Source: Escherichia coli (lineage in GTDB: Bacteria; Pseudomonadota; Gammaproteobacteria; Enterobacterales; Enterobacteriaceae). Taken from it: a stretch of 64,000 nucleotides of DNA. Each line of letters opens with the position of its first letter. The stretch's first letter is position 1. The notes below the pieces were generated by a model, which ran no database searches, was not told where the DNA came from, and saw nothing but the letters and a program-made list of their open reading frames with translations. Made by a program: the position numbers and the translations under genes. This document shows, piece after piece, positions 2,580 to 57,397 of the stretch. The stretch lies in NCBI RefSeq assembly GCF_001677475.2, contig NZ_CP015229.1. One strand, given 5' to 3'.

Positions 2580-3443
2580 ATGCAAAAAATATTAGGTTTA
2601 CTGGTGGTGCTCGGCTGCGTATTTGGCGGTTATTTTGAAGCGGGCGGGCAATTAGTGGCTATCTGGCAACCGGCGGAGATGATCATTATTTTGGGTGCCG
2701 GTTTCGGGGCGATGATTATTGGTAACCCGAAACATGTGCTGAAAGAGATTGCCCATCAAATTAAAGGCGTGATCAGTAAAAAACAGCTTGGGCCGGAATT
2801 TCAGCGCCAGCTATTAATGTGCCTGTATGAGTTGCTCGAAATGGTGCAAAACGGCGGCCTGCGCATGCTGGATCAGCATATCGAGCAGCCGGAGGAGAGC
2901 ACTATTTTCCAGAAATACCCGCTGGTGTTAACCCAGAAACGGCTGGTGACCTTTATTGCCGATAACTTTCGCCTGATGGCGATGGGTAAGATTGACGCTC
3001 ATGAACTGGAAGGCATTCTCGATCAGGAACTGGACACCGCTGAAGAGTCGCTGTTAACGCCGTCGCGCTCGCTGCAACGTACCGCCGAAGCGATGCCGGG
3101 ATTTGGTATTTGTGCAGCAGTGTTGGGGATCATCATCACCATGCAGTCGATTGATGGATCTATCGCCCTGATTGGCCTGAAAGTGGCGGCAGCGCTGGTA
3201 GGGACGTTTTTAGGCGTCTTTATCTGCTACTGCCTGATGGACCCGCTCGCCAACGCCATGGAACAACAGGCGCGGGCGGAGCATTCATTGTTGGAGTGCG
3301 TGCGTACCGTGCTGGTGGCGCAGGCGGGCGGTAAACCGACGCTGCTGGCGGTGGACGCCGGGCGTAAGCTGCTGCATCTGGCGTCCAAACCGACCTTCGC
3401 CAACCTCGACGCGTGGGTGAATGCGATGCTGGAGCAAGAATAA
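2580..3443 (+). CDS. lafT: Flagellar stator protein, MotA-like (LafT)
   Basis: 287 aa, multiple transmembrane helices, MotA/TolQ/ExbB-type C-terminal membrane segment; immediately followed by a MotB-like gene. Confidence 0.8.
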   Translation: MQKILGLLVVLGCVFGGYFEAGGQLVAIWQPAEMIIILGAGFGAMIIGNPKHVLKEIAHQIKGVISKKQLGPEFQRQLLMCLYELLEMVQNGGLRMLDQHIEQPEESTIFQKYPLVLTQKRLVTFIADNFRLMAMGKIDAHELEGILDQELDTAEESLLTPSRSLQRTAEAMPGFGICAAVLGIIITMQSIDGSIALIGLKVAAALVGTFLGVFICYCLMDPLANAMEQQARAEHSLLECVRTVLVAQAGGKPTLLAVDAGRKLLHLASKPTFANLDAWVNAMLEQE

Positions 3444-3445
3444 GC

Positions 3446-4369
3446 ATGAGAAAGACGGGCAACCGCCGCGAGCGTGGGGCAAAAACCACCATCGTCCGGC
3501 GGCAGATCAAAAAGAATCATGCCGGGCATCACGGCGGGGCGTGGAAGGTGGCGTTTGCCGACTTTACTTTGGCAATGATGGCGCTGTTTATGACCCTGTG
3601 GATTGTCAACAGCGTCAGTAAATCCGAGCGTGAAAGTATTATCGCCGCGCTGCACGGGCAGTCGATTTTTAACGGTGGCGGGCTGTCGCCGTTAAATAAA
3701 ATCAGCCCGCCTCATCCGCCGAAACCTGCCACCGTGGCGGTGCCGGAAGAGACGGAGAAGAAAGCGCGCGACGTCAACGAGAAAACGGCGCTACTGAAGA
3801 AGAAATCTGCCACCGAGCTTGGAGAGCTGGCAACCAGTATCAACACCATTGCCCGTGATGCGCATATGGAAGCGAATCTGGAGATGGAGATTGTCCCGCA
3901 GGGATTACGCGTGCTGATTAAAGACGACCAGAACCGCAATATGTTTGAACGCGGCAGCGCGAAGATTATGCCGTTCTTTAAAACGCTGCTGGTGGAGTTA
4001 GCGCCAGTGTTCGACTCGCTCGATAACAAAATTATTATTACCGGGCATACTGATGCGATGGCCTACAAAAGCAATATCTACAACAACTGGAACCTTTCGG
4101 GCGATCGCGTGCTTTCGGCCCGTCGGGTGCTGGAAGAGGCCGGAATGCCGGAAGATAAAGTGATGCAGGTGAGCGCGATGGCGGACCAGATGTTGCTGGA
4201 TGCCAAAAATCCGCAAAGCGCGGGCAACCGGCGCATTGAGATTATGGTGCTGACTAAAAGCGCGTCCGATACGCTGTATCAATACTTTGGTCAGCATGGG
4301 GATAAAGTGGTGCAGCCGCTGGTGCAAAAGCTGGATAAGCAGCAGGCGCTTTCGCAGCGAACGCGTTAA
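3446..4369 (+). CDS. lafU: Flagellar stator protein, MotB-like with OmpA-type peptidoglycan-binding domain (LafU)
   Basis: Single N-terminal TM (WKVAFADFTLAMMALFMTLWIV) and C-terminal OmpA-like domain (IITGHTDAMAY...NRRIEIMV). Start chosen at the ATG 3446, 2 nt after the lafT stop; the longest ORF begins at 3413. Confidence 0.8.
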   Translation: MRKTGNRRERGAKTTIVRRQIKKNHAGHHGGAWKVAFADFTLAMMALFMTLWIVNSVSKSERESIIAALHGQSIFNGGGLSPLNKISPPHPPKPATVAVPEETEKKARDVNEKTALLKKKSATELGELATSINTIARDAHMEANLEMEIVPQGLRVLIKDDQNRNMFERGSAKIMPFFKTLLVELAPVFDSLDNKIIITGHTDAMAYKSNIYNNWNLSGDRVLSARRVLEEAGMPEDKVMQVSAMADQMLLDAKNPQSAGNRRIEIMVLTKSASDTLYQYFGQHGDKVVQPLVQKLDKQQALSQRTR

Positions 4370-43084: not shown

Positions 43085-43158
43085 TGCATTTCTTCCCGAG
43101 TTGAATTGAGGACGTGATGTCCCTGTGAGTCATTTTTTAAAACTAACTTGCCTGGAGT

Positions 43159-43770
<612 letters not shown>

Positions 43771-44150
43771 TTACAGGTGCATTCAGTTTCATTAGTAAAC
43801 CGGAAGTAAATAAGATACGTAGCACATATCAATAAAGGTTAAACGAGATTAAGTTTAATTATTTTCGATTGGGCTTAAATTTATGTTTTTTTCCCGATGA
43901 GTGTCAATATGTGAACGGAAAAGGAATTCAATGGTTAAGTCAATATTTAGAAAAACTGAAAATATTGCTTTTTTGATAAGAAGAAAAAGACATTTGGTTT
44001 CATAAGGTTATTGGCAATATAACGTTCATTTCTTACTTGCATTTTATATTGGTCAGGAATTTTGCCCTGAAGTGTTAGGAATAGTCTTAATGCGCTGTGT
44101 GATGGACTAGTAAAAAAACAAGTTTTAAGGGTAAGGGATAGAATATAAAA

Positions 44151-44378
44151 CTATGATGAGCTGCCATTGAAGATGATTTGCCAATCAGTAAGATATTTTA
44201 ATGGATTAACATGCCGCACAAAATGGTTATAGGTGTTCATTCCAATAAGTGATGGAAAATTGAACCGGGTTATGTACATCATCTGTTCGGTAAGCCCCCT
44301 AAGAGCCAAATTAAGTGAAGTTAAACGAAGGCTGCCAGCTGTCACAGGAACGATGGCCTTTTTGTCAGGGCACTGCAT
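44151..44378 (-). CDS. ykgL: Small hypothetical protein (YkgL-like)
   Basis: 75-aa ORF between ecpR and ykgO, where K-12 has ykgL; no domain recognised. Confidence 0.4.
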   Translation of the reverse strand: MQCPDKKAIVPVTAGSLRLTSLNLALRGLTEQMMYITRFNFPSLIGMNTYNHFVRHVNPLKYLTDWQIIFNGSSS

Positions 44379-44673
44379 TCAGTCATCTGTGCGCATTACT
44401 CTAACTGGCACTCGAACGTCGGCGATGGGGTTGCCGGTGGATCAGGCTGTTCCTGTGGCGTAAACGTTTTTATGTTAGTACCAACAGATTTACCACATTT
44501 ATCATCTTAACAGTTTGAGTGAAAATGCAGGCTGCGCCGCAAAGGGAGGAGACTGAGTGGCGTGTTCAGTCTAAAAGAGAGTTGATGCCAGCATACAGGG
44601 GCGAAGCTGGTCAACAAGTCAACATTAAGATAATGGAATATTCGGAGAGAAACGTCAGGCAGTTGGCCTCAAA

Positions 44674-44784
44674 TGAACAGGAAGAATATATCCCCAGGAA
44701 AATTAATGTTGGTGTTATAAACACACCAACATTAATCCGATCTGATTATTAATCAGACAAATATCGTTAATCCGTCGAATTTTG
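44674..44784. repeat. Intergenic repeat module, split copy, first half
   Basis: Matches 26032-26140 (ATGAACAGGAAGAATA...CCGTCGAATT); ykgO/ykgM follow directly. Confidence 0.7.
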
Positions 44785-44786
44785 AA

Positions 44787-44927
44787 TCAACGTTTTTTCT
44801 TACGACCCTGAACGGCCTTAAAACGTGGATTAGATTTACAAATCACATATAGCCGTCCTTTTCGCTTCACAATCTGACAGTCTGGATGGCGTTCTTTTGC
44901 GGTACGCAGAGAGTTAAGGACTTTCAT
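44787..44927 (-). CDS. ykgO: 50S ribosomal protein L36 paralogue, zinc-independent type
   Basis: 46 aa [46 protein letters not shown]; start overlaps the ykgM stop by 1 nt. Too short for the ORF track; found by manual translation. Confidence 0.9.
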
Positions 44928-45193
44928 CACGCCCCCTTTTTCGTGCTAACAAAACGACCAAAACGTTGGGTGAATCGTTCAACATTTCCTTCTGATGCCA
45001 CTGTTCTCAGCTTCCCTGTATAGAACGGGTGCGATTTAGAAGAGACATCAATTGTCACGTACGGATACGTTACGCCATCCAGCTCAATCTCCCGGTCTGT
45101 TTTGATAGTCGAGCCGATTTTAAAGTACTCATCAACACTGGTGTCGTGGAACACCACAGTACGATACTCAGGATGGATATTGGGTTTCATCAT
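44927..45193 (-). CDS. ykgM: 50S ribosomal protein L31 paralogue, type B (zinc-independent)
   Basis: 88 aa starting [19 protein letters not shown], no Cys zinc ribbon; Zur box immediately upstream. Confidence 0.92.
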
Positions 45194-45198
45194 TTTTA

Positions 45199-45221
45199 CC
45201 TGTTATGTTATAACATAACCG
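45199..45221 (-). promoter_or_regulatory. Zur box in the ykgM promoter
   Basis: Near-perfect palindrome TGTTATGTTATAACATAAC 6-28 bp upstream of the ykgM start. Confidence 0.85.
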
Positions 45222-45477
45222 TAAAGATACATGCTCATCCGGATCATTTCAACACCCAATCCCTGTGACCCTTTGTGGATGTGGAATTTCCGCAACGGGG
45301 AACTCTGGCATTGTTAGCAGCCATTGGTGACGCTCCCATAAACGCCTGGATGAGTGATTGATGATGGTTTTGCTGAGAGTATGGATTTTTCGAGAATGGA
45401 GGTTATCTCTACTTTACTGGCCGATGATTTATCGCAGTATGATTGATTACCTGACAGCGTGTATTCCTCTCCCACGG

Positions 45478-45622
45478 ATATAATAATTACTTACAAAAAG
45501 GGAGAGGATGCATATTTTAAATATCACTGAAGTGAACAGTTTATTGCCGTTATTAATAGAAATGGAGAAATAAATAGGCGTATTCTACAATTGCGACAAA
45601 AACAACGATATTAATCAGTTTA
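45478..45622. repeat. Intergenic repeat module, split copy, second half
   Basis: Matches 26141-26297 (TATTTTAAATATCACTGAAGTGAACAGTTTATTGCCGTTATTAATAGAAATGGAG...AACAACGATATT). Confidence 0.7.
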
Positions 45623-46135
45623 TGACTGATTTGTTGTACTTTATTCTCTTTCATTGGTACTTCCTCGCTTTAAAAAAGAGTGCACTTCGTAAGTGCCCTT
45701 ATATAAATAACGAGTTTGGTCAACCAATTTTTTGACATGTATCACAAATTTGAATAGATGTATTACATCAACTATCTTTTATTGCACCAACGTCATTGAT
45801 ATATGTCGCCTGAAGTCAGTTCCGGGAATGAGTCTGATCTCAAGATTGGCCCAGTCCTGGCGTTGATTGGCGCTGAGGAGCATATCGCATCTCATCATAA
45901 TGTCGTATCTCCTGGGGTGTTATACAAGATATCGTTGTTGGTGACCTGGGAGAGGAATTGAGTTCTATTAAACCGTCAACTATGCCGGATACATACTGGA
46001 TTACACTGCAGGCACGCCTTATGAGAGAACGTGCCGCAGTGACGGGTTAATTATCTGAAAGAATTTGTGAGGCTGTATCGGTTACTCATTGATTTGATAG
46101 TTTTACTCTCGGGAGAGTAATAGATATTTAATCCA

Positions 46136-46379
46136 TTAACGGAAACCAGTGAGTTCCTTTCGATGTCTGAATTTCCTTGGCGTGACATAGGTATATCCTG
46201 TAATTACTAAACCAATATTTTGTGAGCGACGTTTATAATATTCGAGTTCTTGCTCAGAGATGGTTCCATCAGGATTAGCTGACCAGGTCGTCATAGGAGC
46301 CATAACGATACGATTACATGGCTTTGTTTTTTTCTGTCAGCATAAAAGGAGGAAACAGTGATAAGTGTTTATTTGTCAT
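46136..46379 (-). pseudogene. Old-yellow-enzyme/NADH:flavin oxidoreductase family N-terminal remnant (frameshifted, truncated)
   Basis: Manual translation gives MTNKHLSLFPPFML... then, after a frame change, MAPMTTWSANPDGTISEQELEYYKRRSQNIGLVITGYTYV, resembling the OYE N-terminus (xMAPMT...EYY...GLIIT); stop after about 55 codons. Confidence 0.35.
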
Positions 46380-46672
46380 GACAATACCTCAAATGTTTAT
46401 CTGATTTTGATGCGTATATTTTAACTGGTTAGTTGTTACCAGCTTTGGAACCAAGATTTTTGGCTTTGTTTTTATTTATAATTACTGTTAGTGCTTTTAT
46501 TGAATTTATGGTGGAGAAAAGAGTAAAAAAAGAAAGTTAATGATGTGTGTCAGAATATCGGTAAGAAGAATGACGCAATCGTGAGGATACGTTTATTCAT
46601 AATAAATCTCCTGAAAGTTTAGAATTATTTTCTATACAGCCAGATTATCATTGTTACTAATAATGTGGTTAA

Positions 46673-48616
<1,944 letters not shown>

Positions 48617-56515: not shown

Positions 56516-56563
56516 ATAAAATACCATCAATGAAGTGATTAAGAAGTTAGGTAGTGCATCCAA

Positions 56564-56959
56564 TTAGTAGAACATGTGTTTTTCGATAAACGCTCCGATC
56601 ACTTTTTCGTGGATCTCAACTGAGCGTGAGAAGCAGATTGTTTTACGAGCCAACCGCTTAATGCGGGTGCGTAGCGTCAGATTATTACGCTCAATGCGTT
56701 GGGTGAATATTTTGCCGGTCAGATGCTTATTCTTCGGCACCTCCCGGCCATAGCTGCCCCAGTCATCGCTGGTCAGCATGCCGATGTTGAAGGGTGTAAG
56801 CAGTGCCAGTAGCTCCCGGCACGTTTGATCGGTTCGGGGACCAAAAGTGTAGGCCAGTACACCGCCTGTTTTGGTGTTGTACGCGTACCAGAGCCAGTGT
56901 TGCCGGGCTTTACTGCCAACGTAGCTCCATTGCTCATCAAGCTCGCAGATAAGCGCCAC
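56564..56959 (-). CDS. insB: IS1 transposase InsB' (ATG-bounded part; the InsAB' fusion frame extends upstream by frameshift)
   Basis: 131 aa with IS1 InsB similarity (DEQWSYVGSKARQ...YTQRIERNNLTLRT...). Confidence 0.8.
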   Translation of the reverse strand: MALICELDEQWSYVGSKARQHWLWYAYNTKTGGVLAYTFGPRTDQTCRELLALLTPFNIGMLTSDDWGSYGREVPKNKHLTGKIFTQRIERNNLTLRTRIKRLARKTICFSRSVEIHEKVIGAFIEKHMFY

Positions 56960-56985
56960 ATCAGCATGGGCAACAGGCGAAGACG

Positions 56986-57258
56986 TTATTCGCTTTGGCG
57001 CGAGTTTTTTAAAGTCCGGATGACGGTGTTAATACCAATTTTCAGTGTCCTGGCGGTATCGCGAACCCCGGCACCATTAAAGGCCATTTCAGTTATCAGC
57101 TCTTTCATACCCGGCTTACGTGCTTGATAAGTATAAGTGAGCTGAAACACACGGTGGCAGTCACGGCAGCGAAATCTGTCACGGCCTTTAGGGTTCTGAC
57201 CATGGCGGTAAACCTGAGCTGACTGACAACGGGGACAATGAATATTAACGCTGGCCAT
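56986..57258 (-). CDS. insA: IS1 protein InsA (zinc-finger/HTH transposition regulator)
   Basis: 90 aa MASVNIHCPRCQSAQVYRHG... with CxxC...CxxC and HTH; divergent from K-12 IS1A InsA but clearly the same family. Confidence 0.85.
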   Translation of the reverse strand: MASVNIHCPRCQSAQVYRHGQNPKGRDRFRCRDCHRVFQLTYTYQARKPGMKELITEMAFNGAGVRDTARTLKIGINTVIRTLKNSRQSE

Positions 57259-57397
57259 GAGATAACCTCAAAAGCCCGTATTATACATCAGATTCAACTA
57301 ATTAGAGACATCACCAGAAGTTATAAAGTAACAGGGAATTAATAAGATTCTTTTCTCTGAGACGCCAGAATATTTGTTCTGGCGTCTGATTTTGAGT

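Follow-up and report, generated by a model that had tools for sequence, protein, structure and literature searches.

The closest described counterpart of the feature reported here is ykgP (b4630) of Escherichia coli K-12, a 90-nt element that lies at the same locus, derives from the same ancestral gene of the old yellow enzyme (OYE) family and corresponds to its C-terminal 30 codons. In the literature searched, ykgP appears only as a neutral insertion site, as in the construct ykgP::terB::eaeH (PMC6061781), and no work on the intact E. coli OYE gene was found in the searches made. NemA (N-ethylmaleimide reductase, b1650) belongs to the same superfamily and is encoded at another chromosomal locus; its N-terminal NRIxMAPxT and GLxIT(S)E-type segments align with the locus described here, with 33% identity over 46 aa to the surviving remnant and 28% full-length identity to the intact ortholog. 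The OYEs of the YqjM/NamA type form a further point of reference, of whose catalytic core the remnant retains nothing. In RefSeq genomes carrying the remnant, PGAP labels it an 'incomplete' or 'frameshifted; incomplete' oxidoreductase pseudogene. One such record, ACR3H5_RS20165 of E. coli HCP5S3_I2 ('oxidoreductase; frameshifted; incomplete'), has the same deletion junction and the same additional A, and is 97.8% identical over 320 nt, with a few point differences. The feature is, in short, an ordinary pseudogene that is already known, being allelic with the catalogued ykgP and marked in RefSeq.

The window, by which we mean the whole 64,000-nt (64-kb) stretch of E. coli contig NZ_CP015229.1 that was analysed, contains this feature at 46128-46379 on the minus strand. 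With a probability of about 0.96, we regard it as a non-functional pseudogene, the leftover of an accessory E. coli gene for a 380-aa NADH-dependent flavin oxidoreductase of the OYE family; no finding spoke against this reading. An earlier note, made from the letters of the sequence alone, had placed a frameshifted OYE-type remnant at 46136-46379. The upper end of that interval is correct, while the lower end has to be moved to 46128, since the last 15 codons and the TAA stop survive in another frame. The parts of the remnant are as follows, with L002, L005 and L011 denoting three contigs on which the gene is intact (strain SY019, strain PapRG-04-4 and assembly GCA_040939905.1, respectively).

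46128..46379, minus strand: whole pseudogene remnant, 252 nt of the 1143-nt gene, delimited by tblastn with the ortholog and by colinearity with the intact L002, L005 and L011 on both sides of the deletion
46380..46474, minus strand: retained 5' flank, about 95 bp of native sequence ahead of the OYE gene, with about 93% identity to the same flank in intact loci
46314..46379, minus strand: leader ORF of 21 codons, MTNKHLSLFPPFMLTEKNKAM and stop, comprising the native start and the first 19-20 codons, its TAA end made by the frameshift
46327..46333, minus strand: A7 homopolymer with the +1 frameshift, one A longer than the A6 run that intact alleles and most remnant alleles have
46136..46303, minus strand: 55-aa ORF, MAPMTTWSANPDGTISEQELEYYKRRSQNIGLVITGYTYVTPRKFRHRKELTGFR, comprising OYE codons 26-67 (MAPMT...VTP), 13 out-of-frame codons across the junction and a stop
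46174..46176, minus strand: internal deletion junction, with one G (46175) in place of 893 nt of the intact gene (nt 204-1096, codons 68-365)
46128..46175, minus strand: surviving C-terminal end, EIQTSKGTHWFPLMD, with the original TAA stop, sharing its frame with the leader and not with the 55-aa ORF
46379-46323, frame -3: ortholog aa 1-19, 84% identity (tblastn)
46333-46178, frame -1: ortholog aa 16-67, 87% identity (tblastn)
46175-46131, frame -3: ortholog aa 366-380, 80% identity (tblastn)

Descent from an OYE-family gene is supported by profile matches. The 55-aa ORF alone matches PF00724 (Oxidored_FMN) in Pfam with E=2.9e-7 and 30.5 bits, and the frame-corrected 80-aa sequence, in which both ORFs are joined, does so with E=9.4e-12 and 45.3 bits, the gathering cutoff being 27 bits; the remnant covers profile positions 1-63 of 342. 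In a tblastn search of the intact E. coli 380-aa protein against the whole 64-kb window, the first two pieces (aa 1-19 and 16-67) have a joint E-value of 2e-26. The OYE-like N-terminus that the earlier note had translated by hand from the minus strand is therefore genuine, as is the out-of-frame leader ORF that it had described upstream, and its reading of a decayed locus between ykgM and the LysR/AKR pair stands on profile, orthology and synteny, although the decay extends further than it proposed and includes two more deletions.

The AT-rich gap that had been pointed out is likewise real: the GC content of 46100-46700 is 31-37%, compared with about 50% for the genes on either side. Pfam gave no hits for seven other small ORFs of the gap (45641-46540), and thus no second gene remnant was found between ykgR and the OYE stop. 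No RNA family of Rfam matched either strand of 44500-47000 at E<=1, and in 45000-46800 both promoter-like sites (7, compared with 5.9±2.6 in shuffled sequences) and terminator-like hairpins (1, compared with 1.0 expected) were at background level. One assertion of the earlier note was wrong: 45240-46700 does hold an intact gene, namely the following.

45553..45654, minus strand: ykgR, intact gene for a 33-aa small membrane protein identical to K-12 YkgR, a neighbour and not a part of the pseudogene

When 45200-46700 was compared by megablast with 5426 complete E. coli genomes, many of them had an 'NADH-dependent flavin oxidoreductase' annotated under the match, which was split by a gap about 0.9 kb wider than in the window. 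Strain SY019 (L002) carries at 3099-4241 an intact 1143-nt gene for a 380-aa protein, WP_000182337.1, immediately upstream of ykgR-ykgM-ykgO. The comparison with genomes holding an intact gene, which had been suggested as a check, thus gave a clear answer, as the 380-aa gene is present in L002, L005 and L011 at the same position. The fullest locus, seen in L005 and L011, has the order ykgM, ykgR, OYE, alpha/beta hydrolase, LysR-2, LysR-1, AKR-b, AKR-a, fdeC. The remnant occupies the ykgP position, between ykgR and the fdeC/eaeH side and downstream of ykgM-ykgO, in the order found on contigs L001 to L005, including K-12 (L004). WP_000182337.1 and WP_000182335.1, both of 380 aa, are orthologs at the identical position and share 80-87% protein identity with the surviving parts in the window, whose copy differs from them in having lost codons 68-365 and in being frameshifted.

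The match of the intact ortholog to PF00724 is full-length. Among solved structures, 3l5a ranks highest by sequence (E=1.3e-46); other bacterial NADH:flavin oxidoreductases come next, and YqjM (1z41) appears lower in the list. In NCBIfam, the top-scoring family is NamA, with 179.9 bits against a cutoff of 431; since the protein reaches none of the equivalog cutoffs, it is not NamA. Orthology with NemA was considered and rejected, since the NemA profile NF007899 scores 19.9 bits for the remnant and 119.2 bits for the intact ortholog against a cutoff of 403, with an identity of 28-33%. Judged from these scores, the intact protein is a distinct accessory OYE, closer to the YqjM/NamA type ('thermophilic-like') than to NemA. 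Its active-site motif reads HGAHGF where NemA has HSAHGY, which places Phe180 at the position of the canonical proton-donor tyrosine (Y187 of NemA) and may point to an atypical mechanism or substrate. The genes for the OYE, the hydrolase and LysR-2 have a GC content of 44-45%, compared with about 50-52% in adjacent genes.

At the nucleotide level, window positions 46477-46176 are colinear with L002 3001-3301, and 46174-45000 with L002 4195-5371. Between them, the internal deletion amounts to a net loss of 892 nt, and its junction has no microhomology. It took nearly the whole FMN-binding TIM barrel together with the His175/His178 active-site pair: the motif HGAHGF (175-180) of the intact ortholog, in which H175, H178 and F180 align with H182, H185 and Y187 of NemA, falls within the deleted segment. 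Owing to the slip in the A7 run, the native frame runs into a TAA after 21 codons, which gives rise to the leader ORF. The earlier note had described the gene as frameshifted and with a premature stop. Both are present, but the main lesion is the internal deletion, and the premature stop arises from its out-of-frame junction.

A functional OYE has a complete (beta/alpha)8 TIM barrel of about 340 profile positions, an active-site His/His(Asn) pair with a proton-donor position, and an uninterrupted frame. In the window, codons 68-365 are gone, and with them the barrel and all of these active-site positions, while the frame is broken by the A7 frameshift and by the out-of-frame junction at 46175, giving the three segments in tblastn. 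The remnant presumably has no enzymatic function, and given that 298 of the 380 codons are lost, neither FMN binding nor NAD(P)H-dependent reductase activity would be expected. A GAGG ribosome-binding site is retained just upstream of the ATG, within 46380-46400, and from it and the start codon the remnant would yield at most short, meaningless peptides of 21 or 55 aa. As the native start, the ribosome-binding site, the last 15 codons and the stop (TAA at 46128-46130) survive, the gene was deleted here rather than having always been absent. The ancestral state was polarised from these retained gene ends and from the stubs of neighbouring genes.

The identical deletion junction was found in all seven of the other remnant alleles examined (L001, L010, L012, L013, L014, L015 and L016). 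The extra A is found in L010, L012 and the complete genome L013, with a PGAP remark of 'frameshifted', and is absent from L001, L014, L015 and L016. In L001 (strain GF43), the A6 run is kept and the start codon is mutated from ATG to ATA. Since the junction is common to all carriers, and the extra A or the loss of the start occurs only in some of them, the deletion came first and happened once, and the secondary hits were independent. Decay thus began with a single ancestral deletion, in which nt 204-1096 were replaced by one base and the surviving C-terminus was thrown out of frame. Separate hits in individual carriers came later, in the form of a +1 A slip (in the window and a few others) or the loss of the start codon (in GF43), and the 67 surviving codons are now about 6% diverged from every intact allele.

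Comparison of these 67 codons with three intact alleles gives 12-13 substitutions in the window, distributed 5/5/2(3) over codon positions 1, 2 and 3; in terms of codons, 8 changes are nonsynonymous and 3-4 synonymous. The intact alleles differ among themselves by 0-1 synonymous change in the same codons. A substitution pattern without codon-position bias is as expected for unconstrained sequence in neutral decay, a reading that draws on only 12-13 substitutions. Neutral decay also accounts for the remnant being only about 93% identical to every intact allele, whereas the flanks are 98-99.9% identical.

The decay of the locus includes two further deletions, and the remains of the affected genes are listed below.

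46475..46486, no strand assigned: second deletion junction, about 2.09 kb, with the alpha/beta hydrolase gene and nearly all of LysR-2 removed relative to L005 and L011
46487..46540, plus strand: LysR-2 stub, the last 17 codons and the stop, VSAFIEFMVEKRVKKES and stop, compared with VRAFIDFMVEKRVKLEN and stop in L005
47666..47743, minus strand: stub of AKR-b, the second aldo/keto reductase gene, the last 25 codons and the stop

The alpha/beta hydrolase gene is entirely gone from the window. The third deletion, of 921 bp, affects AKR-b and has its junction at 47734-47744, in an imperfect short direct repeat, CCTCnnTTATC. No mobile-element ends or target duplications were seen at the deletion junctions. 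Given that the LysR-2 and AKR-b stubs and both ends of the OYE gene are kept, these events were losses in the window haplotype, not gains elsewhere.

Among the 5426 complete E. coli genomes surveyed, the window-type remnant is present in 92 (~1.7%), as defined by a contiguous match to a 201-nt probe spanning the junction. A 305-nt probe from the 5' part of the remnant matched 92 genomes at 95-99% identity and 2119 at 90-95%. The intact-type allele occurs in about 2106-2119 of the 5426 genomes (~39%), the lower figure being the genomes with at least 80% of the 893-nt internal segment and the higher one those found with the 5' probe. A stub of the K-12 type only, with the match limited to the last 45 nt of the internal segment, is found in about 2830 genomes (~52%).

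The alignment of the window with K-12 runs from 46174 downstream with 98.4% identity. In ykgP, the 3' 47 nt align with window positions 46128-46174, and the 5' 43 nt are missing from the window. The larger K-12 deletion also took the 5' end of the OYE gene, the LysR genes and AKR-a, leaving the AKR stub ykgQ. Unlike K-12, the window keeps the start, codons 1-67, the last 15 codons, and intact LysR-1 and AKR-a genes. The BLAST alignment starts exactly at 46174, and a deletion endpoint common to the window and to K-12 and B was considered for this position; it was rejected, as K-12 and B keep 43 nt more. Because its endpoint lies 43 nt further upstream in the gene than that of the window, the K-12 deletion was an independent event, and ykgP of K-12 is an independent, more severe truncation of the same gene.

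Other explanations of the locus were weighed against descent by deletion from a complete gene. That the resemblance to OYEs is a chance match in AT-rich intergenic DNA might be argued from the direct comparison with NemA. This search, proposed in the earlier note for 45800-46400, was positive but weak, its 46-aa alignment having E=6e-5 for the stretch and E=0.012 window-wide. Chance can be dismissed altogether, because the Pfam score of 45.3 bits lies well above the gathering threshold of 27, the syntenic ortholog is 84-87% identical and the nucleotides are colinear with intact loci. An artefact of sequencing or assembly, with the frameshift and the truncation both introduced into an intact gene, would fit the position of the frameshift in an A7 homopolymer, a classic error site. 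We consider this exceedingly improbable, since the A7 run is reproduced in L010, L012 and the complete genome L013, 92 complete genomes as well as independent draft and Logan assemblies share the junction of the 893-nt deletion, and codons 68-365 are missing even without the extra A. We attach just as little probability to the idea that the short form is ancestral and that the 'intact' genes elsewhere are later insertions or gains. An acquired module is hinted at by the low GC content (44-45%) of the genes for the OYE, the hydrolase and LysR-2, but the two ends of the OYE gene, codons 1-67 and codons 366-380 plus the stop, both survive in the window in frames that conflict, along with the 3' stubs of LysR-2 and AKR-b. 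Partial genes that preserve both termini cannot predate the complete gene, so this allele goes back to a complete copy, whether or not the module was once acquired.

It is slightly more conceivable, though still very unlikely, that a functional small protein is made from the remnant, in the form of the 21-aa leader or of the 55/79-aa N-terminal piece of the OYE, or that the remnant serves its neighbours as a regulatory leader. In favour of this, the native GAGG ribosome-binding site and ATG have been kept together with about 95 bp of 5' flank, and the haplotype persists in 92 complete genomes. Against a small protein, the A6 and A7 frames among carriers, together with one ATA start, leave no single conserved ORF, the substitutions are mostly nonsynonymous and without codon-position bias, and a fragment limited to profile positions 1-63 of 342 cannot fold into a TIM barrel. 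The absence of Rfam families, and of promoter-like sites above the level of shuffled sequences, counts against both a small protein and a leader. A related proposal is that the haplotype with all three deletions is an old, low-frequency allele spread by recombination, with loss of the module advantageous in some niches, or with the 5' end expressing a peptide in a new role. Its divergence of about 6% from all intact alleles, the clean class of 92 genomes that carry it and its presence in a genome that shares a 100% identical FdeC with a strain whose locus is intact are compatible with this proposal, which we rate as improbable, if somewhat less so than the functional small protein.

Under the preferred reading of a decayed, non-functional gene, the history of the haplotype appears to have involved recombination. 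The 1417-aa FdeC protein of the window is found with exactly the same sequence on 24 public contigs. L010 (GCA_012921415.1) has 1 mismatch in 17.4 kb relative to the window (99.99% identity) and the same remnant. The FdeC protein of L011 is identical to that of the window, yet the locus beside it is intact. In the comparison of L011 with window positions 43097-47744, identity drops from 99.93% right of 47734 to about 94% between 47734 and 46174, and rises again to 99.2% left of 46174. This mosaic identity, together with the identical FdeC next to an intact locus, suggests that homologous recombination has swapped intact and decayed haplotypes between close relatives. The triple-deletion haplotype is thus probably old and moves between lineages in this way. 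For window positions 28000-52000, none of the 5426 complete RefSeq E. coli genomes exceeded an identity of about 97.9% over 10-12 kb, compared with 99.99% for the draft GCA_012921415.1, so that complete genomes represent the source lineage poorly.

The main value of these results lies in correct annotation: one or two small ORFs should not be called here, and the feature should be entered as a pseudogene allelic with ykgP. The locus also offers a worked example of stepwise decay, in which a common deletion was followed by independent homopolymer slippage or start loss and by neutral drift, and it could be used as a lineage or recombination marker. The remnant itself opens no biological question and is of low interest.

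Several minor observations were made in the surroundings. The ~470 bp between the OYE stop and ykgR, which are about 98% conserved in all E. coli compared, carry no annotation and match neither Pfam nor Rfam. At 45682-45696 on the minus strand, about 30 nt upstream of the ykgR start, there is a hairpin with a T-run that resembles a terminator (GCACTTACGAAGTGC ACTCTTTTTT). Just upstream of the ykgM start, at about 45200-45225 on the minus strand, the palindromic TGTTATAACATAACA is a candidate Zur box of the Zur-regulated ykgM-ykgO operon. The ykgL gene (44525-44752, plus strand) appears intact in the window and in L010, and is annotated by PGAP as frameshifted in GF43 and SY019, so that its state, too, differs from strain to strain. 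Further away, an IS1-like element of 766 bp occupies 56550-57315. It has terminal inverted repeats of 23 nt and ORFs of the InsA/InsB' type, and on either side of it stands a copy of an 8-bp target duplication, AGAAGTTA (56542-56549 and 57316-57323). The insertion must be very recent, given its absence from the otherwise near-identical assemblies L010, L011 and L012. The element separates rclA from rclB, being inserted about 35 bp upstream of the latter, and may uncouple rclBC from the rclA promoter.
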